Source of the DNA: Promethearchaeota archaeon
Lineage (GTDB): Archaea > Asgardarchaeota > Lokiarchaeia > Sigyniarchaeales > SOKP01
Direction: 5' to 3'
DNA: 64,000 nucleotides
Assembly (NCBI GenBank): GCA_048940925.1
Contig: JBHLOC010000002.1
Location: forward strand, 128,001-192,000
Shown: piece after piece, positions 14,781-39,083 of the stretch
How the letters are laid out: every line of letters begins with the position of its first letter
How positions within the stretch are numbered: position 1 is the stretch's first letter
Position numbers and translations under genes: made by a program
Notes under the pieces: generated by a model
Seen by the model: only the letters and a program-made list of their open reading frames with translations
Told to the model about the DNA's origin: nothing
Databases searched by the model: none

Positions 14781-15779
14781 GTGTTATTATTATTGAAGGT
14801 TTTATTAACAGGACCTTTTGGAAATGTAGGGTTGAGTACATTACACGAATTAATTAAAAGAAATCATGACGTCAGAGTTTTAGATATAAAATCTAAAAGA
14901 AATCATAGAATTGCAAAAAAGTATAAAGATCAAATAGAAATATGCTGGGGAGATATACAGAACTATATGTAGAAAAAGCAGTATCGAGATATAATTATCC
15001 ATACAGCAGCAATTATACTTCCGCTTGCTGATAAGAAACCAAAGTTTGCTGAGTCTGTCAATGTTGGTGGAACTTCAAATATCATTGAATCAATGCATAA
15101 TCAACCGCAGAAACCTAAAATCATCTTTACATCCTCAGTAGCAATATATGGAGGCAGGTTAGAAAATCCTTTAATTAGACCAAAAGATCCTCCTAATCCC
15201 AATCCGGATGATGCGTATGCAAAACAAAAGATTAAGTGTGAGGAAATAGTTAGAAATTCAGGATTAAAGTGGTCTATATTTCGTTTAACTTATATTGTAT
15301 CAATAAATAAATTACAAATGGATCCTCTCATGTTTGAAATGCCACTTGATACATGTATTGAAATCTGTGATACTAAAGATGTAGGTCTTGCTCTAGCAAA
15401 TGCTGTAGAAAATGATAAGATTTGGGGTACAGTAATGCATATTGCTGGAGGAGAACGGTGCCGGATTTCATATCGAGATTACCTTAATGAAATGTTAGAT
15501 CTTTTTGGCATTGGTCATCAATTCTTACCTGACGAAGCTTTCAGACAGGATCATGGTTTCCATTGCGGATTTAAGACAACAGATCAAAGTCAAAACCTTC
15601 TAAAATACCAAAAACATACTCTTGATGATTATTTTAATGACGTAAGAAAAAAAGTCTTCTTTTTGCGACTCTTTACCAAAATGATTAGACCAATTGCACA
15701 AAAATTTCTGCTAAATAAATCAGTTTATTACAAAGAATATATAAATAACTATCATCCTAAATCTACGATTAAAAACTAG
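14781..15779 (+). pseudogene. Disrupted NAD-dependent epimerase/dehydratase (extended SDR)
   Basis: LLTGPFGNVG, IIIHTAA, TSSVAIYG, YAKQK. Both halves share a frame but are split by TAG 14970-14972; the expected VEKAVS is present only in a shifted frame. Confidence 0.75.
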
Positions 15780-16075
15780 TTAAATTTCAATCTTTTTTCA
15801 ATCCTTCTAAAAGGGTAATTCTTTCTTTTTCATTTATGTGACAAATATGATTAAAAAACTGAATAAAAATGTATGAAAATGATCACATTTTAATTCAATG
15901 TTTTTTATTTTCTATCATATAATTTCCTAAAAGTTTCAATCAGAATAATAATGATATATCTCTACTATCATCAATCTATAAACTGGTTATGTTGATAAAT
16001 AGAAAGAAATAAAAATGTTAAAAAAGAATAAAATCTAAAAAAAGAATTATTAAATTCAGAGATATATCAAAAAAG

Positions 16076-16091
16076 TATACAATCGTGTATA
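16076..16091. promoter_or_regulatory. Palindrome TATACA-ATCG-TGTATA upstream of the Sec-hdrA operon (candidate operator)
   Basis: Perfect 6-bp arms ~30 nt before the ATG at 16120. Confidence 0.35.
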
Positions 16092-16119
16092 AAAAAAAGA
16101 GGTGGATGTGTAAAAATAC

Positions 16120-18063
16120 ATGAAGAATAATCAAAATCATCGGATTGGATACTATGCATGTCAATGAGGTATAAATATAAGGAGTAAAGTAGATTGCGAT
16201 GAGTTAACTGAATATGTAGCTAAAAACTTTGACGATGTTGTAATTTCTAAGAAAAATTCATTTCTATGAACTGATAATGCTCAAAAAGAGATAATTGAAG
16301 ATATTAGAGAAAAGAATTTAAATAGAATTGTGGCATCAGCTTGAACTCCACGTACTCATGAAGTAATTTATAGGGGCACAATTGCTAAAACTGATTTGAA
16401 TCCTTATTATTTTCAGATGGTAAATGTGCGTGAACACTGCTCATGGTGTACAGATAGTAGAGAAGAAGCTACAGAAAAGGCTAAAATCCTAGTAAAAAGT
16501 GGTATTGAAAGGGTTAAAAGATTAGAACCAGTTCCTATTAAGACAGTTCCGGTCACTAAAGCTACTTTAGTGATTGGAGCTGGTATTGCAGGGATGAATG
16601 CGGCTCTGGATCTAGCGAATCAAGGTATCAAGGTTTACTTAGTTGACTGTAAAACTACGATAGGAGGGAGAATGGCACAATTAGACAGAACTTTCCCGAC
16701 AGATGACTGTGCAATATGAATATGTGGTCCAAAAATGTTAGAAGTTAATAGAAATGAGAATATTGAATTATTGACTTATAGTGAAGTAAAGAATGTAGAA
16801 GGATATGTCGGTAACTACAGAGTAACAATTGAGAGGAAACCAAGATTTACTACAGATGAATGTAATGGATGTGGAGCCTGCGCTGAGGTCTGTCCAGTTT
16901 ATACGACAAATTATTTCGATGAACATTTAGGGGCACGAAAAGCAATTGATATATCATTTGGCCAAGCAGTACCTTTTTTATATGATATCGATCGAAACAC
17001 CTGTGTAGAATGTTTCTCTTGTGTAGACGCCTGTGAATTAGATGCCATAGATTTTAGTCAAGAACCAAAAGAACTTAAAATTGATGTTGGTACGATTATT
17101 ATAGCGACTGGATGGGATATATATGAACCTTTTGGTGAATACGGATATGGAGAATTTGAAAACGTTATAACTCAACCTCAATTAGAACGAATGTTAGCTC
17201 CAAATGGACCTCTTGAAGGCCATGTACACAGAATATCAGATAATAAAGAACCTAAAGAAATTGTATTTATACAATGTGTTGGAAGTCGAGAAACTGAACG
17301 AACATACTGTAGTGGTGTCTGTTGTATGCTTGCTCTAAAAAATGGAAGATTACTCTTAGAGGAATTTCCAGATGCAAATATTACAGTTTGTTATATTGAT
17401 ATTAGAACACCTGAAAAAGGATTTGAAGAGTATTACGAACGATCAAAGGAAGCGGGAATTCGAATGATTAGAGGAAAAGTAGGAGAAATCTCAGAAGATC
17501 CTGATACTAAAAATATTAAAGTTCGAGTGTATTCATCGCTTACTGATGAAATAATAATAATTGATGCTGATTTAGTAGTATTATCCACAGCAGCACTCCC
17601 TTCAAAAGGATCCGAACAAATTGTTAAACTTTTAAATCTAGATACAAATACGTATGGATTCCTTACAGAATCACACTTTGGGTTAATGCCCCAAGAGACA
17701 AAAACAAAGGGAATTTTTATTGCTGGATTTGCTCAAGGACCAAAAAATATTTCTTATTCAGTTTCTCAAGCCAGAGCTGCTGCCAGTAAAGTAGCAGAGT
17801 TAACAGCACCAGGAGAAATCGATATAGAAATGATTACAGCTGAAGTTGATAGTGAATTTTGTATATCATGCAGACGATGTGAAAAAGAATGTCCGAAAGG
17901 TGCAATTAAAATTAAGGAGGATATCGGAGCATTTATTGATGAGATAAATTGTGATGGATGTGGTATTTGTGCTACATGTTGTCCTACACAAGCTATTGAT
18001 ATAAGATATTATCGAGATCATCAATTATTTGCTGAGATTGATGGTCTTTTAGGAGGTGCGTAG
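16120..18063 (+). CDS. hdrA: Heterodisulfide reductase subunit A, selenoprotein with four UGA-encoded Sec (647 aa)
   Basis: One frame from ATG 16120 to TAG 18063. TGA at 16165 (RIGYYACQUGINI), 16267 (NSFLUTD), 16342 (ASAUTPRTHE) and 16717 (TFPTDDCAIUICGPKM), each aligning to Cys in the four hdrA paralogues of this window. Confidence 0.92.
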
Positions 18064-18066
18064 ACA

Positions 18067-18537
18067 ATGAGTAAGTATAATTATAAGGTGGTAGCATTTG
18101 CGTGTATAAAATGAGGATATAGTGCAGCTGATTTAGCAGGAGTTTCCCGATTGAAATATACATCAGCTATAAAAATCATCAAAGTGCGTTGTACCGGAAG
18201 AATCGATCTAAAACATATACTCTACAGTATAAAATCTGGAGCTGACGGTGTTATGATTGTAGGATGAAGACCAAATGAATGCCAATTTAAAAAGGGTAAT
18301 TTTACGGCTGAAAAGCATGTAGAATTAGCAAACAGGATATTAGAATTGAGAGGTTTTGGAAGTCAAAGAGTAAATATGTACTGGGTAAGTGGAGCAGAAG
18401 CAGAAAAATTTGTGCGAAGTGTAGAAGATATTTTTTCGAAAGTGGAGAAAGTAGGTCCAAATCCGATAAATTTAATGGATATTAAACCAGAAATAAATAA
18501 AAAAGAAAAAGAACTAATTACAGCCCCTGTTGAATGA
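18067..18537 (+). CDS. mvhD: MvhD/VhuD/FlpD [2Fe-2S] subunit, selenoprotein with two Sec (156 aa)
   Basis: ATG 18067; FACIKUGYSAADLAG (TGA 18112), VRCTGRID, IVGURPNEC (TGA 18265). Paralogues have CNWCSY and GCHxGDC. Confidence 0.92.
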
Positions 18538-18588
18538 TTCTTGTAAAAAATGCTAGTTACAAGAGGACTAGCCTTGCAATGGAGGGGG
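18524..18588 (+). promoter_or_regulatory. Eukaryote-like SECIS element candidate
   Basis: AUGA (18534-37), 9-bp stem UUCUUGUAA/UUACAAGAG (18538-46/18557-65), A-rich loop AAAAUGCUAG, GA (18566-67); possible lower helix CCCCU/AGGGG. Confidence 0.8.
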
Positions 18589-18645
18589 ATTATTAAATAT
18601 TATAATAGATATAGATCAAAAATTTTTAAAAAAAAGGTTTAAAAT

Positions 18646-20142
18646 GTGGTTCAGATAGGCAAAGAGTATTCCTTTGATAAGATCAATCCACGGAATTTAA
18701 TGGAAGCAACATACAGGGCTATTGAAAATTTTCAGATAAGGGCTCTTTTTGAAGCAAAAGAGGAAATTTTACAAGCTGGAAAATATTCGGAAGAAGAATT
18801 TTATGAAATTTTAGACTCAATGATCGATGCTGAAACAGAACGCACATTGATTTTAGAAGAAATACGAGGTAACGAGCCCTTATTTTTAGAAGAACTAGTA
18901 AAGATTGTAAAGGACGTGCCTCCTGTAAATGTTATTAGAGATATATTTTATTTAAAGGAACAGGGTTATATTAAAAAAGAAATCGAAACTAAAATTAAAA
19001 AAGTTATCAAGAAAATTAAAGGAGAAGAAAAAGAGGTTGAAGAAAAAGAATTTTTCTATAGATATCAAGCTAAAGATCTTCCAAATGATTTTATAGAGCA
19101 CCATTTGGAACCTGTTTCTATTGTATTTAAAGCAGGAGTATGTTGTCATTGTGGATGGTGCTCCTCTATCTGTCCTGTAAATGCCATAACTGTAACTGCT
19201 GACACACTTGAAATACACGATGAAATTTGTATTAAATGTGGATTATGTTATACAGTTTGTCCTCGTTCCTTTTCAATTGAACAAGCTTTAATGGCTATTA
19301 AAAAACTTGATAAAACCTTTAAATTTTCAGAAAAAATTAATGGTTATATCGATACCTATTCTGCCACCACAACTAAAGATGAGATCAAAAAGGTACGACA
19401 AGATGGAGGAATCGTAACCTCATTATGTGAATATTTACTTACGAATAAATTAGTTGATGCGATTGTAGCTGTTCAGCATTCAAAAGACTTATGGAAACCG
19501 GAGCCAGTTATTGTAGATAATTTAAAAGATCTCTATAAGACAGGAGGGACGAAATATGCAAATGCATCAACATTAGCAATTATTGATAAAACAAAGATGT
19601 ATGAGAACATAGCAGTAGTAGGAACTCCCTGTATGATGAATGCTTTAGAAAAAGGTCAATTATTTCCAAGCGGTATAGTCTTTTTCAAGAATATAAAATA
19701 TAAAATTGGACTTTTTTGCATGGAATCTTTTCCCTATGAGGGTGTACTTGGATTAATTAAGGAGCAATTTAAACAGGATTTTACTAAAGTAACAAAGATG
19801 GATATCAGCGGTGGTAAATTTATTATCTATATGGATTCAGGAGAAGAATTAAAAGTACCACTTAACGATATTAAATCTTATGCACGCTCTAATTGTCATT
19901 ATTGTGAAGATTTAACAGCGGATTATGCTGATATTTCTGTAGGTTCAATTGGTTCAGGAAGTGGCTGGTCTTCTGTAATCACCCGAAATAAAAAGGGAGA
20001 AAAAATTTTTAAAGCTGCAGTTAAAGCTAAGTTAATCGAAGCTAAAAGTCTAAAAGAAGTTAAACCTGGTTTAGGTTTATTAGAAAGGATTGCTCTTAGT
20101 AAGAGGAAGAACTGTAAACCAATTAATCTAGAAGGAGAATAA
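18646..20142 (+). CDS. FrhB/FdhB-family protein with N-terminal helical/wHTH module and ferredoxin
   Basis: CCHCGWCSSICP, CIKCGLCYTVCP, RQDGGIVT, VGTPC, IGLFCME, CHYCEDLTADYADISVG. Confidence 0.85.
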   Translation: MVQIGKEYSFDKINPRNLMEATYRAIENFQIRALFEAKEEILQAGKYSEEEFYEILDSMIDAETERTLILEEIRGNEPLFLEELVKIVKDVPPVNVIRDIFYLKEQGYIKKEIETKIKKVIKKIKGEEKEVEEKEFFYRYQAKDLPNDFIEHHLEPVSIVFKAGVCCHCGWCSSICPVNAITVTADTLEIHDEICIKCGLCYTVCPRSFSIEQALMAIKKLDKTFKFSEKINGYIDTYSATTTKDEIKKVRQDGGIVTSLCEYLLTNKLVDAIVAVQHSKDLWKPEPVIVDNLKDLYKTGGTKYANASTLAIIDKTKMYENIAVVGTPCMMNALEKGQLFPSGIVFFKNIKYKIGLFCMESFPYEGVLGLIKEQFKQDFTKVTKMDISGGKFIIYMDSGEELKVPLNDIKSYARSNCHYCEDLTADYADISVGSIGSGSGWSSVITRNKKGEKIFKAAVKAKLIEAKSLKEVKPGLGLLERIALSKRKNCKPINLEGE

Positions 20143-20162
20143 CACATAAATATAATTTTATC

Positions 20163-21275
20163 ATGAGTTCAAAATCATTTAAGGATCTAATTAAAGAAGT
20201 TCATGAGAAAGGTATTTGTCAAGAATGTGGAGGCTGTGTAAGCTTTTGCAGTTCAGTTGATTATAATGTAATTGGATTTAAAGAACCCTTCTCACCTCCA
20301 GAATATATAAATAAAGATGCTTGTCTTGAATGTGGGATATGTTATTATCTCTGTCCTCAAACTCATATTTTGGATGATGATCTTAACAAAACATATAATT
20401 TTACTGATTTCAATTCAATGCCTTTAGGGTATTTCGAAGATATTCTATCTTGTCAAACAACTGATCCTGAATTTTTAAAACATGGAACTGATGGTGGAGT
20501 GGTAAATACAATCATAAACTACCTATTAGAAAAAAAATTAATTGATGGAGCGATTGTAGCAAAATATCAGGGTCCATTCTCTAGAGAATCCATGTTTGCT
20601 GAAGGAAAAGGTGATCTAATTAAGGCATCAGGTACAAAATTGGAAATATCTACCCAATTAGATGAAATTCAAAGATTTTGTACATATACACGCTCCATCC
20701 CTCAATTAAACCACTATAAATTTAAAAAATTAGCAATAGTGGGGACACCTTGCCAAATTTATACGGTTAGATGTATGCAAAATTTAGGTGTGACCCCTTC
20801 TGAGTATATTGAAATATGTTTAGGATTATTTTGCTATCATAATTTTCTTTTTGAGAAAACTCAGAGAGAAAAATTTGAAAAAACTTTTAATTTAAAATTT
20901 GAAAATATAAAAAAAATAAATATTAAGGAAGATTTGATTCTAAACTTGCAGTATAATAAATCTAAAGAGAAAACACTCCATATTCCTTTTGAACAGTTGA
21001 CAGATTACATCCGTCCTCCCTGTCATTCTTGTACCGATTTTACTAATATCTATGCTGATATTTCATTTGGAGGTCTTGGATCACCAAATAAATATACTAC
21101 AGTAATTCCTCGTACAGAAAAAGGTAAAAAATTGATTAACAAAATTCTTGATGATAAGATTATTAAATGTTTAGACATTGATGCTACAGCTGAAAATAAA
21201 ATGAAAGAGTTAATCACAAAATTTTCTCGATTAAAGATAAAGCGAGGAAAAGAATTTATAGAGAATTTAATGTGA
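20163..21275 (+). CDS. FrhB/FdhB-family protein
   Basis: CQECGGCVSFC, CLECGICYYLCP, GTDGGVV, VGTPCQ, LGLFC, CHSCTDF..ADISFGG. Confidence 0.85.
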   Translation: MSSKSFKDLIKEVHEKGICQECGGCVSFCSSVDYNVIGFKEPFSPPEYINKDACLECGICYYLCPQTHILDDDLNKTYNFTDFNSMPLGYFEDILSCQTTDPEFLKHGTDGGVVNTIINYLLEKKLIDGAIVAKYQGPFSRESMFAEGKGDLIKASGTKLEISTQLDEIQRFCTYTRSIPQLNHYKFKKLAIVGTPCQIYTVRCMQNLGVTPSEYIEICLGLFCYHNFLFEKTQREKFEKTFNLKFENIKKINIKEDLILNLQYNKSKEKTLHIPFEQLTDYIRPPCHSCTDFTNIYADISFGGLGSPNKYTTVIPRTEKGKKLINKILDDKIIKCLDIDATAENKMKELITKFSRLKIKRGKEFIENLM

Positions 21276-21279
21276 GGAA

Positions 21280-22536
21280 GTGAAATTTATAACAGAAATA
21301 GAAAAAAAAGGGAAACCAAAGCAAGATATTGATGAAATAGATTTATTCTTAAAAAAAATATATGAACCTAATTTAATAAATTTATTAAGAAAATGTTATC
21401 AATGTGCTCGATGTTCAGGTGTATGTCAAGTTAGCAAAGTTCAGAAGTTCACACCAAGTAGAATAATTCAGATGATTTTAGAGGGTTTTGAGGATAAGAT
21501 TATCGAAAGTGGAGTTTTATGGGATTGTTTAACATGCAATGCTTGCCTCCAAAACTGTCCTAAAGATATAAACTTTGCGGACATTGTGCGAATAGCACGA
21601 TATAAAATGCAAAAAGAAGGTTTTCACAGTCTTGATCGGTTAATATCACATAAAGGCCTTTATCCGACAATAGGTGAACTAATGAGTCAAAACCATATTG
21701 ATATTACAAGACCCTTGGATTGGATTCCAAAAGGGTGTAAAGTTAAAGATAAAGGAAATATATTATATTTTGTTGGATGCATTCCTTTTTTTGGTTATGA
21801 TTTTGAGAATTTAGACAAAATAGCGTCTAGCACATTATCAATTATTTGTAAAATTGAAAATGAGCCTATTGTTGTCCTCAAGGAAGAAGTTTGCTGTGGA
21901 CATGATTTATATTGGGGGCAAGGTAAATTTGAAGTATATATAGAATTAGCAAAAAAAAATAAAAAATTATTTGAAAAAGCAGGGATTTCCACAATAATAA
22001 CAGCATGTGCGGAATGTTATAGAACATTTAAAGTGGATTATCCCAATTTATTTGAAGATTTCGACTCAAAATTTGAAGTTAAACATATTATTGAATATGT
22101 GTATGATAATTGGAAGCTAGGGAAAATAGCTTTTAAAAGTCCTAAAAAAGCTTATCAAAATATTAATTTTACTTTTCATGATCCTTGTAGATTAAGTAGA
22201 TTTTTACCAAAAAATATAAATCTAGTAGAAGAACTTCGAGAAATTTTTACACATCTAAACAGTCTTGGGTATAATTTCAAAGAAATGAAACATAATAAGC
22301 AGAATTCATTATGTTGTGGAGTCAGTTCTTGGTTGAATTGTAATGAGCGTTCAAAAGCATTGCGATATACTAGAATTTTAGAGGCAAAGGATGTCGGTTC
22401 TAAAGTATATACATCTTGTCCTAAATGCAATATCCATTTAAATTGTATAAAGAAAGATTATGAAGATATATCTTCAGTAGAAATTTCAGATCTTTCAGAA
22501 TTTCTAGTTGATATAATTTCTATTATAAAAAATTAA
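21280..22536 (+). CDS. HdrD-like (HdrC-type ferredoxin plus two CCG domains)
   Basis: CYQCARCSGVC, CLTCNACLQNCP, EVCCG, TACAEC, HDPCRL, LCCG, SCPKC. Confidence 0.85.
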   Translation: MKFITEIEKKGKPKQDIDEIDLFLKKIYEPNLINLLRKCYQCARCSGVCQVSKVQKFTPSRIIQMILEGFEDKIIESGVLWDCLTCNACLQNCPKDINFADIVRIARYKMQKEGFHSLDRLISHKGLYPTIGELMSQNHIDITRPLDWIPKGCKVKDKGNILYFVGCIPFFGYDFENLDKIASSTLSIICKIENEPIVVLKEEVCCGHDLYWGQGKFEVYIELAKKNKKLFEKAGISTIITACAECYRTFKVDYPNLFEDFDSKFEVKHIIEYVYDNWKLGKIAFKSPKKAYQNINFTFHDPCRLSRFLPKNINLVEELREIFTHLNSLGYNFKEMKHNKQNSLCCGVSSWLNCNERSKALRYTRILEAKDVGSKVYTSCPKCNIHLNCIKKDYEDISSVEISDLSEFLVDIISIIKN

Positions 22537-25608: not shown

Positions 25609-25612
25609 CTTA

Positions 25613-26386
25613 ATGGAATTCAAACCAAAAATTTTAGGATTTTTATGTAATTGGTGTTCTTATGCTGGGGCTGATCTTGCAGGTGTAAGTCGAATTCAGT
25701 ATTCTCCAAATATTAGAATTATAAGAGTTATGTGTAGCGGTAGAGTTGATCCTATCTTCATTGCTGAAGCGTTTTCTAATAATATTGATGGTGTATTAGT
25801 TTTAGGATGTCATCCTGGAGATTGCCATTATATAAGTGGCAACTATGAAGCAGAAATAAAAATGAAGATGTTGAATAAATTATTAGAATTAATAGGGTAT
25901 TCTAAACGTTTACGATTAGATTGGGTTTCTGCTGCTGAAGGTAATAGATTTGCTCAGCTAGTTGATGAATTTAATGAACATATTAAGAAATTAGGTCCTA
26001 ACCCAATAAAAAACAAAAAACTAAAAGCTAAATTATCTGACGATTTTGCTGCAATAAAATCTGTTTTGATGGATTCTAGACTTAGAATTTTAGTGGGTAG
26101 AGAAAGAAAAATCACTACAGAAGGAAATGCATATAATGAGATAATCCCTATAGAGGAATTTGACCAAAAAATTGACGATGCAATTAATAATGAATTTTCA
26201 CGATATAAAATATTGCAAAAAATCTCTCACCATAGTAAATCTGTCCCAGAAATCTCTAAAGAGGTTCAAATTGCGCCAAATGAAGTATTAAATCACATTG
26301 TTACTTTAAGACAAAGAGGGCTTGTTGATTTAGATGAGGTTAATGAAGAAATACCAACATTTATTTCAATTAAGGAGGGTAAATAA
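25613..26386 (+). CDS. mvhD: MvhD with C-terminal helical/wHTH extension
   Basis: [29 protein letters not shown]; likely start MEFKPK at 25613 after a G-rich SD. Confidence 0.88.
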   Translation: MEFKPKILGFLCNWCSYAGADLAGVSRIQYSPNIRIIRVMCSGRVDPIFIAEAFSNNIDGVLVLGCHPGDCHYISGNYEAEIKMKMLNKLLELIGYSKRLRLDWVSAAEGNRFAQLVDEFNEHIKKLGPNPIKNKKLKAKLSDDFAAIKSVLMDSRLRILVGRERKITTEGNAYNEIIPIEEFDQKIDDAINNEFSRYKILQKISHHSKSVPEISKEVQIAPNEVLNHIVTLRQRGLVDLDEVNEEIPTFISIKEGK

Positions 26387-31031: not shown

Positions 31032-34000
31032 ATGGAGGGATCTGTATTAGTAATTGGAGGAGGTATTGCGGGAATCCAAACATCTTTAGATTTAACTGAA
31101 TTAGGATTTAAAGTGTATTTAGTAGAAAAAACACCCTCAATTGGAGGGAGAATGGCTCAACTTGATAAAACATTCCCTACAAATGATTGTAGTTTATGTA
31201 TTCTTGCCCCGAAAATGGTGGAAGTATTTAGAAATCCTAATATTGAATTAATGACTTATCATGAAGTTCAAAAGATTTCTGGAAAAGCTGGAAATTTTAA
31301 TGTTACTGTTCTTAAGAAACCACGTTATATAGATGAGACAAAATGTAAAGGATGTGGGGATTGCGCGACCAAATGTCCAAAGATTGAAACCCCTAATATT
31401 TTTGATATGAATTTAGGCAAAAGAAAATCTGTTTACATACCGTTTCCTCAGGCAGTACCTCCTATATATTTAATTGACTCTGAATTATGTTTAAAACTCA
31501 CAAAAGGAGTATGCGGAGTCTGTGAAAAAGTTTGCAAGGCAGAAGCAATAGATTATGAACAACAACCCCAAGAAATCAAATTAAATGTTGGTGCTATCGT
31601 TGTTGCCACAGGATTTGATGTATTAGGGAAGGAATTATCCTCAAGATGGGGATATAGTTATAAGAATGTAGTTAATGCGTTAGAATATGAACGAATGTTA
31701 TCTGCTTCTGGACCTTTTGAAGGTCATATTCTACGTCCAAGCGATGAAAAAGAGCCAGAAATAATTGCATTTATTCAATGTGCTGGATCAAGGGATTTAC
31801 GTGAAGGAATTCCATATTGTTCAAGTGTATGTTGTATGTACACTGCTAAAGAAGCAATCATAACCCGGGAACACTCTGAAAATTCAAAATGCTTTGTGTT
31901 TAGGCATGATGTTAGAGCTTTCGGTAAAAATTTCTATGAGTATACCCAGAGAGCTCAAGAGGAATATGGGGTAAAATATTTTCAGACTAAAATTAGTAGA
32001 ATTTTAGAAGATCCAGAAACAAATGATTTAGTGATTCATTATGAGGATTTAAAAACTGGAGAATTTAAGGATTTTAAAGCAAACCTTGTAGTACTTGCAG
32101 CACCTCTCGTCCCTTCAGCTGGAACTAAAGAATTAGCTAAAATATTAGATATCGGATTGGATGAGTATAATTTTTTCAAAGAAAGATCATATTTTAATAA
32201 ATCCTTATCATCAAAAGAGGGTATTTTCATAGTAGGATTTTGTCAAGGTCCAATGGATATACCAGAAACTGTAGCAGATGCCAGTGGGGTGGCTTCACAT
32301 GTAGCAACCTTATTAAGTTCCTCTAAATTCACTGAAATAAAGGAAAAAATTATTGAGATACCAGAAAAAGAAGTTGCTTTAATGGATGAGCCAAGAATTG
32401 GTGTTCTTATCTGTCATTGTGGTATTAATATTGGTAAATATATTGATATCCCTGAAGTGATAAAGCACATAAAATCATTACCTAATGTAGTTTTTTGTGA
32501 AGATAACTTATATTCATGTAGTTCTGATTCTCAAGAACGAATTAAAGAAGTAATAAAGGAATATGATTTAAATAGGTTTATTGTAGCTTCTTGCACACCA
32601 AGAACACATGAATCTTTGTTTCAGGAGACATGTCAAGAAGCTGGGTTAAATAAGTATTTGTTTGAAATGGTCAATATCCGTGATCAATGTAGTTGGGTTC
32701 ATATGACCGAAAAAGAACTTGCTACCGAAAAGGCTAAGGATCTAATAAGAATGGGAGTTGCGAAGTCAAGATTATTAAATCCACAAAAAGAAGAGAAATT
32801 AAAAATCACTCAAACTGCATTGGTGATTGGTGGAGGTATATCAGGAATGACTGCTGCCTTAAACATAGCTAATCAGGGATTTCTCGTGTATCTTATAGAA
32901 AAAGAGAAATATTTAGGTGGAAATTTAAGGTATTTAAATATGTTATATCCTACTCAAGAGGACGCATCAGTCTTACTAAATGAAACCATAGAAAAGGTCA
33001 TGAACAACAAGCACATTAAACTCTTCTTAAGTTCTGCATTGAAAGATATTAATGGGTATGTCGGTAATTATAATGTTTCACTTATCGATTTAGAAGAAAA
33101 AGTTCATGAATTAAAAATTGGTACGATTATAGTAGCCACAGGCGGACAAGAATTAAAGCCAAATGAATTTTTTAACTATAGTTATACGAACCATAATGTA
33201 ATTACACAGCTACAGCTAGAACAGAAATTAAAAGATGAAGATAGTTCGTGGCTTGACAAGCTAAATCATATCACTACACTCTTATGTGTTAATGCAAGAC
33301 AAGAAGAAGGGATAACCTATTGTTCAAATATCTGTTGTGAAAGTGCTATAAAAAATATCAACCTTCTAAAGGAACTAAAACAAGACCTCAAATTAATAGT
33401 TCTTTATAGAGATCTTCAAATGGCTAAGAAAGAATTTGAAGCTTATTATCGTGAGCGAAGAAAAGATGCTGTTTTTTTGAGATATGATTTAAATAAACCA
33501 CCAATAATTAGTAATATAAATGGGAATGCTGAAAAGTTTGAAATAAAAGTATTTGATACCAATTTGCAAGATAACATCGAATTTGAAACAGATTTACTGG
33601 TATTATCGACTCCTATGGTTCCAGCTGATAATTTAGAAGAATTAGCACAGATGTTAAAGGTTCCGTTGGATAAAAATGGATTCTTCTTAGAAGCACATGT
33701 TAAATTAAGACCGCTAGATTTTGCTACAGATGGAATATTCTTATGTGGGTGTGCTCAATGGCCAAAAAATATACAAGATTCAATATCTCAAGCAAATGGT
33801 GCTGCTGGAAGAGCATGTAGATTTCTGGGCGTTAAGGAAATTACAACTTCTGGATTAGTAGCAGAAGTGGATCCTGATATATGTATTGGTTGTGGAACAT
33901 GTAAGGAAACATGCTCTTATAGCGCAATAGAACTCTTAGAAACTAAAAGAGAATTTGAAGAAGTATGTTTATCTATAAAAAAATCGTCGATCAATTCAGG

Positions 34001-38648: not shown

Positions 38649-39083
38649 ATGTCAAAATCAAAAGGAAAAGCAACTAAAAACGGATTTGAGCCCAATATTT
38701 TAGTTTTTTGTTGCAATTGGTGTAGTTATGCTGGTGCTGATTTAGCAGGAGTTTCACGATTTCAATATCCTCCAAATATTAGAGTAATACGCGTAATGTG
38801 TTCTGGAAGAGTTGATCCTTCATTTGTCCTAAAAGCTTTAAAAAATGGCGCTGATGGAGTTCTTGTAAGTGGGTGCCATATAGGAGATTGCCATTATATT
38901 TCTGGAAATGAATATACCCAAGAACGGTTCGAAAGATTACATAATATTCTGATTAAGCAACTAGGAATAGATCCAAAAAGAGTACGCTTAGAATGGGTGA
39001 GCGCGTCTGAAGGAAAGAGATTTGCTGAAGTAATCACGGAGTTTACTAATCAAATTAAAGAATTAGGTCCCTTGAAATCCTAA
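38649..39083 (+). CDS. mvhD: MvhD [2Fe-2S] subunit
   Basis: [26 protein letters not shown]. Confidence 0.92.

Follow-up and report, generated by a model that had tools for sequence, protein, structure and literature searches.

The closest described systems come from Lokiarchaeota, where hdrA and vhuD were reported to stand always in tandem, with very short spacers, and to encode selenocysteine (Sec) at up to five positions in HdrA and at two in VhuD (Mariotti et al., 2016, Mol Biol Evol, PMC4989117). Up to six UGA codons over about 2 kb accompany a single Sec insertion sequence (SECIS) element in these pairs, the lokiSECIS, which is present only after vhuD and consists of AUGA, a 9-bp stem, an 11-nt loop with five A's and a terminal G, and GA (PMC4989117). 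According to the same study, the hdrA stop codon is always UAA or UAG, the AUGA can double as a stop codon (described for VhuU.1), the lokiSECIS escapes standard tools, and no SBP2 is known in Lokiarchaeota. The shared element was later confirmed over hundreds of Asgard metagenome-assembled genomes (MAGs) (Huang et al., 2024, ISME J, PMC11227280). To our knowledge, no experimental proof of Sec insertion has been reported in the literature on Asgard SECIS elements. Here we describe an hdrA-vhuD pair with six in-frame UGAs in a 64-kb stretch of DNA (C41:128001-192000, hereafter the window) from a MAG of Lokiarchaeia (G000; 4.8 Mb, 30% GC). We compared it with ten orthologous loci from Promethearchaeota (Lokiarchaeia) MAGs and with paralogous loci, loci being numbered L0xx and genomes G0xx. 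The gene structure, the match of each UGA to Sec or Cys, a covarying RNA element, its uniqueness at the locus and the Sec machinery of the genome, all found here, make it highly probable that this selenoprotein pair is carried on one bicistronic mRNA and served by a single eukaryote-like lokiSECIS behind vhuD.

Open reading frames (ORFs) were translated with TGA read as Sec (U). On the + strand, hdrA (16120-18063) encodes a heterodisulfide-reductase subunit A homologue of 647 aa with four Sec codons and a TAG stop (18061-18063). It is followed on the same strand by vhuD (also called mvhD; 18067-18537), which encodes the delta subunit of an F420-non-reducing hydrogenase, with 156 aa, two Sec codons and a terminal TGA (18535-18537). 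A first-pass annotation of this DNA had placed the hdrA stop (18063) and the vhuD start (18067) 3 nt apart and had counted six UGAs in two cistrons. The sequence bears out both statements: the ATG at 18067 is preceded by a gap of three nucleotides (ACA), and all six UGAs fall at Cys/Sec positions. Spacers in the orthologues are likewise short, at 3-6 nt. A Shine-Dalgarno (SD) sequence for vhuD, GGAGGTG (18052-18058, + strand), can be read within the 3' end of hdrA and is kept in orthologues; together with the 3-nt gap, it fits a bicistronic and translationally coupled mRNA. Termination of hdrA at UAG here, and at UAA or UAG in eight orthologues, is what a model with a shared SECIS predicts. 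In one orthologue (L002:3001), ATC stands in place of the vhuD ATG, which may reflect non-canonical initiation or an assembly error.

The product of hdrA has the flavoprotein and ferredoxin domains of the HdrA type (Fer4 and Pyr_redox_2 in Pfam) and matches the solved HdrA chain 9sfi_A with an E value of 4e-199. VhuD belongs to the Pfam family FlpD (MvhD family; E 1.6e-42) and matches the solved chain 9sfi_K (E 3.3e-38). Every UGA, all on the + strand, aligns with a Cys or a Sec of these chains, which places all six at Cys/Sec positions. UGA-1 (16165-16167, HdrA residue 16) corresponds to a Cys of the solved HdrA and is U across all compared orthologues and paralogues. UGA-2 (16267-16269, residue 50) and UGA-3 (16342-16344, residue 75) also correspond to Cys in the solved chain; both are U in the orthologues, and the paralogues have Cys (three paralogues in the case of UGA-2). 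UGA-4 (16717-16719, residue 200) occupies the canonical Sec position, given as X (Sec) in 9sfi_A, and is U in 13 of 13 compared sequences. The two codons of vhuD, UGA-5 (18112-18114, VhuD residue 16) and UGA-6 (18265-18267, residue 67), are both X (Sec) in 9sfi_K and U in all orthologues. All six codons remain UGA across 8-10 orthologous loci from related MAGs, and the amino-acid identity of 0.8-0.97 in the stretches between them indicates that the reading frame across the UGAs is under selection.

Behind vhuD, the core AUGA...GA hairpin spans 18534-18567, at 2369 nt from the first UGA and 269 nt from the last, and the same element is found at the same place in all ten orthologous loci. All of its parts lie on the + strand. 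The AUGA (18534-18537) abuts the stem, is invariant in 17 of 17 aligned elements and provides with its UGA the stop codon of vhuD, an overlap with the 3' end of the selenoprotein coding sequence that recurs in nine orthologues. The main stem, helix II, pairs 18538-18546 with 18557-18565 over 9 bp, including one U·G. It is capped by an apical loop of 10 nt (AAAAUGCUAG, 18547-18556) with an A-run and a terminal AG; this length is shared with L004, the remaining relatives having 11 nt, and represents a one-base variant. The second half of the core (GA at 18566-18567) is GA or AA in all aligned elements and is followed by an invariant C; by analogy, AUGA and GA are presumed to pair as a kink-turn. 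These features, namely an AUGA at the stem, a 9-bp stem, an A-loop, a GA and a location at the 3' end, are those of a lokiSECIS or Asgard type I eSECIS-like element.

The alignment of 17 cores, which includes six paralogous elements from the window's own genome, has compensatory changes at nine of nine pairs of helix II, with 95.4% of cells paired, a result matched by none of 500 shuffles. Single-sequence minimum-free-energy folding of the window does not recover the SECIS fold, which consequently rests on comparative evidence. In the fold of an 11-sequence alignment, the main stem is joined by a closing helix and a small additional hairpin. The closing helix (helix I) is formed by CCCCU (18524-18528), inside the vhuD coding sequence, and AGGGG (18583-18587), as found by RNAalifold and a geometry survey, and its arm sequences covary over 36 elements. 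The additional hairpin (helix III, 18572-18582, CCUU GCA AUGG; RNAalifold) is weak in this copy, with one U·U mismatch. The first-pass annotation had ended the element at 18567, which is correct for the GA of the core, but the conserved structure continues past it to about 18591.

We searched the window for a second element with two covariance models built here, R1 (72 nt) and R2 (the 40-nt core), applied unfiltered to the full 64 kb. One significant match per model was obtained in the window, in both cases at the vhuD element: 80.3 bits (E 2.7e-21) with R1 and 56 bits (E 1.5e-9) with R2, the next-best matches in the window reaching 14.5 and 15.2 bits, respectively. The first-pass annotation had found its only AUGA/GA hairpin behind vhuD, about 2.4 kb from the first UGA, which agrees with this single match at 2369 nt. 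It had also proposed a covariance scan of 15780-18650 and had named additional SECIS elements inside or upstream of hdrA as the result that would refute it. No further element was found in the window, neither model had a significant match in 15780-18530 when run unfiltered, and unfiltered R2 detected exactly one element in each of the ten orthologous and three paralogous loci. Rfam models run on 15000-22000 with E up to 10 gave no match to any SECIS family, the eukaryotic RF00031 and the bacterial models included; two Rfam matches in this region, to a snoRNA and a miRNA, were judged to be chance. A scan of 15780-18650 for the euryarchaeal GAA_A type of SECIS (lower stem of at least 5 bp, upper stem of at least 3 bp) returned no match.

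Local signals were sought by folding the 70 nt downstream of each UGA and scoring the result against shuffles. No stable hairpin follows five of the UGAs, with z-scores of +0.9, +0.6, +1.3 and 0.0 for UGA-1 to UGA-4 and -0.2 for UGA-5. The stable hairpin after UGA-6 (18297-18327, z -2.7) was rejected because it is not kept in orthologues (alifold -0.9 kcal/mol). A permissive AUGA/stem/GA regular expression gave hundreds of matches in this AT-rich window and was therefore non-discriminating, and the covariance models were used in its place; by these models, its candidates within hdrA (16266 and 16358) are at noise level. The same holds for weak model matches at 17657-17715 (10.4 bits) and 16082-16126 (9.6 bits). 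An R2 match within the hdrA of L006 (18 bits, E 0.13) sits on a 39-nt insertion and is not a SECIS, the L005 copy of that insertion lacking AUGA.

The genome encodes a tRNA-Sec (C3:50049-50141) with an adjoining SepSecS gene (484.6 bits, above the cut-off). Near it lies an EFSec-like gene (240.3 bits, just below a bacterial-SelB cut-off), and a PSTK-like gene is located elsewhere in the genome (139 bits, below the cut-off). As 262 of the 1973 long open frames terminate with TGA, the codon functions as an ordinary stop here and is not reassigned genome-wide. The single shared distal SECIS put forward in the first-pass annotation is thus supported by sequence analysis, and the Sec machinery is present.

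In the mechanism that we propose, the lokiSECIS would recruit the Sec-specific elongation factor and Sec-tRNASec, either directly or via a presumed SECIS-binding factor, and this recruitment would act on ribosomes anywhere upstream on the same mRNA. All six UGAs, 269-2369 nt upstream and distributed over two cistrons, would be decoded as Sec, and the UGA within the SECIS core would be too near for recoding and would terminate vhuD. What we infer in this scheme is that the genes are co-transcribed, that the core folds as a kink-turn, that a factor binds and that the element acts at a distance.

Some points weigh against one element serving both genes. Co-transcription and SECIS function are both deduced from sequence. 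The models R1 and R2 derive from this genus alone, and a structurally unrelated second signal would escape them. The other points concern the conservation of hdrA itself. Synonymous-codon identity along the gene, measured in eight orthologues, has a mean of 0.56 (sd 0.07) and is raised only at both gene ends: to 0.74-0.83 at the 5' end (16114-16200, codons 1-25, including UGA-1) and to 0.71-0.73 at the 3' end (17989-18060), where the rise coincides with the vhuD SD sequence and where an internal vhuD promoter is possible, judging from the DNA. As a positive control, the 3' end of vhuD, where helix I overlaps the coding sequence, gave 0.77-0.82.

It is unlikely that the two genes are mostly transcribed separately, vhuD having its own promoter inside the 3' end of hdrA, that the SECIS belongs chiefly to the vhuD 3'-untranslated region, and that hdrA reaches it only via read-through. 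A conserved AT-rich block (TTGATATAAGATATTAT) does lie about 60 nt before the vhuD ATG, in the stretch of raised synonymous conservation, and its geometry would suit an archaeal TATA box followed by a short SD-bearing leader. The conservation near this block is, however, also accounted for by the SD sequence and the conserved protein sequence. Moreover, hdrA needs a SECIS and no other is present, the 3 nt between the two genes contain no terminator, and an additional vhuD transcript would supplement the bicistronic one and not replace it.

Quite improbable is a second arrangement, in which the hdrA UGAs rely wholly or partly on another cis-element that is not a lokiSECIS, for example a signal of the Sec-redefinition type in the hdrA 5' end, the distal SECIS being mainly for vhuD. 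The synonymous identity of that 5' end, as high as in the SECIS-overlapping 3' end of vhuD, would agree with such a signal, as would a rare CGG codon for Arg that is invariant there in eight orthologues. Yet RNAalifold predicts no conserved structure in this region (-2.3 kcal/mol), shuffled sequences fold as well as those after UGA-1 to UGA-4, and conservation is not raised around UGA-2, UGA-3 and UGA-4. Two loci (L007 and L011) retain the four UGAs and lack the conserved 5' block. Gene starts are commonly constrained by initiation, and the raised conservation at the hdrA 5' end likely reflects such a constraint. Just upstream, the SD block of hdrA (GAGGTGGATG, 16099-16108, + strand), 11 nt before the ATG, is invariant in nine of ten orthologues. 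A perfect palindrome (TATACAATCGTGTATA, TATACA-N4-TGTATA; 16076-16091, + strand), about 30 nt before the hdrA start and conserved in an alignment of ten orthologous upstream regions, is not SECIS-like; it may serve as a TATA-like promoter site or as an operator. Beyond the palindrome, the conserved non-coding sequence upstream splits the orthologues into two distinct groups.

That the hdrA UGAs do not encode Sec at all, the gene being in decay, confined to a 442-aa frame from the ATG at 16735, or translated by another tRNA reading UGA, is barely credible: the longest plain ORF under table 11 is indeed 16735-18063, but at least eight genomes have these four UGAs at Cys/Sec positions, and the protein stretches that separate them are 80-97% identical. 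In addition, UGA-4 matches the canonical Sec of the solved HdrA, the genome encodes tRNA-Sec and SepSecS, and UGA otherwise serves as an ordinary stop in it.

The lokiSECIS that very probably serves both hdrA and vhuD is one of eight elements that R2 detects in the whole genome. Sec-type hdrA-vhuD pairs precede three of them, and a stand-alone hdrA and a Prx-like gene (AhpC-TSA) precede one each; of the others, two are preceded by small membrane-anchored ORFs, and the one on C7 has no gene assigned. The stand-alone hdrA, a paralogue (L028, G000:C85:64836-66896), has three UGAs and encodes 678 aa with a C-terminal extension, and no vhuD lies downstream. Here and in four relatives (L054, L059, L065, L066) it has its own SECIS 14 nt past the stop, which indicates that the signal follows the selenoprotein unit, whatever genes that unit contains. 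This gene departs from the published statement that hdrA and vhuD of Lokiarchaeota are always in tandem. R2 matches were obtained in 24 of 24 sampled genomes of the same genus and in none of 16 genomes of other genera in the order, an absence that could reflect the specificity of the model.

Directly upstream of strong lokiSECIS matches, we also observed small ORFs (83-110 codons), each of which encodes a transmembrane helix at the N-terminus and contains a single in-frame UGA (L027, G000:C41:222970-223260, - strand; L026, G000:C63:88250-88587; and L062, in G021). They contain the motifs GGTSUSSPC, GGGGUTSC and CKRU, of the types UxxC, UxxxC and CxxU, and have no convincing Pfam family. From their sequences, these are candidate membrane-anchored selenoproteins that belong to none of the listed Asgard families.

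Two frhB-like genes (18646-20142 and 20163-21275, + strand; Pfam FrhB_FdhB_N/C) lie downstream of the SECIS, and the synteny hdrA-vhuD-SECIS-frhB-frhB is kept in all relatives. The SECIS may therefore be intercistronic within a longer operon that includes the frhB genes; alternatively, transcription may end in the 54-nt spacer before frhB, at a terminator (T5 at about 18622), and start again there from a promoter. Cys-type paralogues of vhuD and hdrA occur further along the window (25610-26008, 31041-32318 and 38697-39071), and the genome as a whole has about 15 hdrA-like and about 15 vhuD-like loci.

Two variations of hdrA were seen among the relatives. A further in-frame TGA, the fifth, is present at a ferredoxin-cluster Cys position in L003 (residue ~301) and in L008 (residue ~614), each seen in one genome only. 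Barring sequencing errors, these two loci appear from their sequences to have seven UGAs per single SECIS, above the published maximum of six. The 39-nt insertion mentioned above lies between the third and fourth Sec codons, at L006:1310-1350 (G067) and L005:970-1010 (G020), in two of 54 genomes of the genus. It folds into an 8-bp hairpin, has an imperfect direct repeat of 10 nt at its flanks and brings an in-frame TAG or TAA into hdrA. It could mark a split gene, since homology picks up again precisely at a GTG, or could be a mini-intron or simply a small insertion.

Around the SECIS core, a three-helix layout was observed in the window (18521-18591) and in L024-L031 and L039-L067, near position 1480-1565. 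Of 36 unique elements drawn from 25 genomes, 33 have this geometry, versus 18% of shuffled flanks. Helix I has 5-11 bp; helix III, which is GC-rich, begins 3-7 nt past the GA and directly adjoins helix I on its 3' arm; and both are built from many different complementary sequences among the elements. We tentatively raise the possibility that the SECIS of this genus is a three-helix junction that joins the closing helix I, helix II with its kink-turn core, and a conserved helix III rich in GC. The main texts of PMC4989117 and PMC11227280 model only the core, the upper stem and the loop and briefly mention lower stems; the helix III layout is not described in them. Were this layout true and unreported, helix III could help to form a docking surface for the presumed archaeal SECIS-binding factor, and might help one element to serve up to seven UGAs over two reading frames, maybe three in two relatives.

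Recoding of six stop codons by one RNA signal, over a distance of more than 2 kb and past a gene boundary, would be the most extreme known case of SECIS action at a distance. Since this lineage contains the archaea closest to eukaryotes, the arrangement bears on the origin of the eukaryotic Sec system. Its significance was recognised in 2016, and the window adds another well-assembled example with conserved orthologues. The residual value is modest and lies in the structural detail of the element, while clean loci such as this hdrA-vhuD pair are usable as templates for reporter or transcript-mapping work.

Among other known systems, the bacterial SECIS is a SelB-bound hairpin immediately 3' of each UGA: the recoding of UGA to Sec is common to it and the present locus, but five of the six UGAs here have no stable hairpin and that of UGA-6 is not conserved. 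The vhuD SECIS of Methanococcales and Methanopyrus, of the GAA_A type, resembles it in having one 3' element for two vhuD UGAs, in the synteny of hdrA and vhuD, and in the AUGA and GAC/AAC motifs that flank the main stem. In those archaea, however, hdrA encodes a single Sec, and the SECIS combines a GAA_A bulge with a GC-rich upper stem; no GAA_A structure was found here. With eukaryotic SECIS elements and selenoprotein P (SelP), the locus shares a 3' AUGA/GA element, unpaired apical A's, a kilobase distance and several Sec per mRNA; the stem is shorter here, and the eukaryotic Rfam model has no match. SelP needs SBP2 and has two SECIS elements in a single ORF, as opposed to two cistrons and one element here, so that "processive" decoding and the parallel with SelP are an analogy only.

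The pairs described by Mariotti et al. (2016) agree with this locus in gene order, in the short spacer, in a multi-Sec HdrA that includes the canonical position, in a two-Sec VhuD, in a single element of AUGA, 9-bp stem, A-loop and GA located after vhuD only, and in a UAA or UAG stop of hdrA. Differing here are the span of 2.37 kb, the loop of 10 and not 11 nt, and the embedded stop, which is that of vhuD; none of these is essential. The first-pass annotation had mentioned that eukaryote-like SECIS elements were known in Lokiarchaeota, which is the case (PMC4989117, PMC11227280), and had left open whether the six-UGA configuration had been described, as it explicitly was by Mariotti et al. (2016). 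The arrangement as a whole is therefore already known, having been published for Lokiarchaeota in 2016 (PMC4989117), and, as all of its defining sequence features recur here save for a loop shorter by one base, the finding is real, correctly interpreted and a further instance of that published system.

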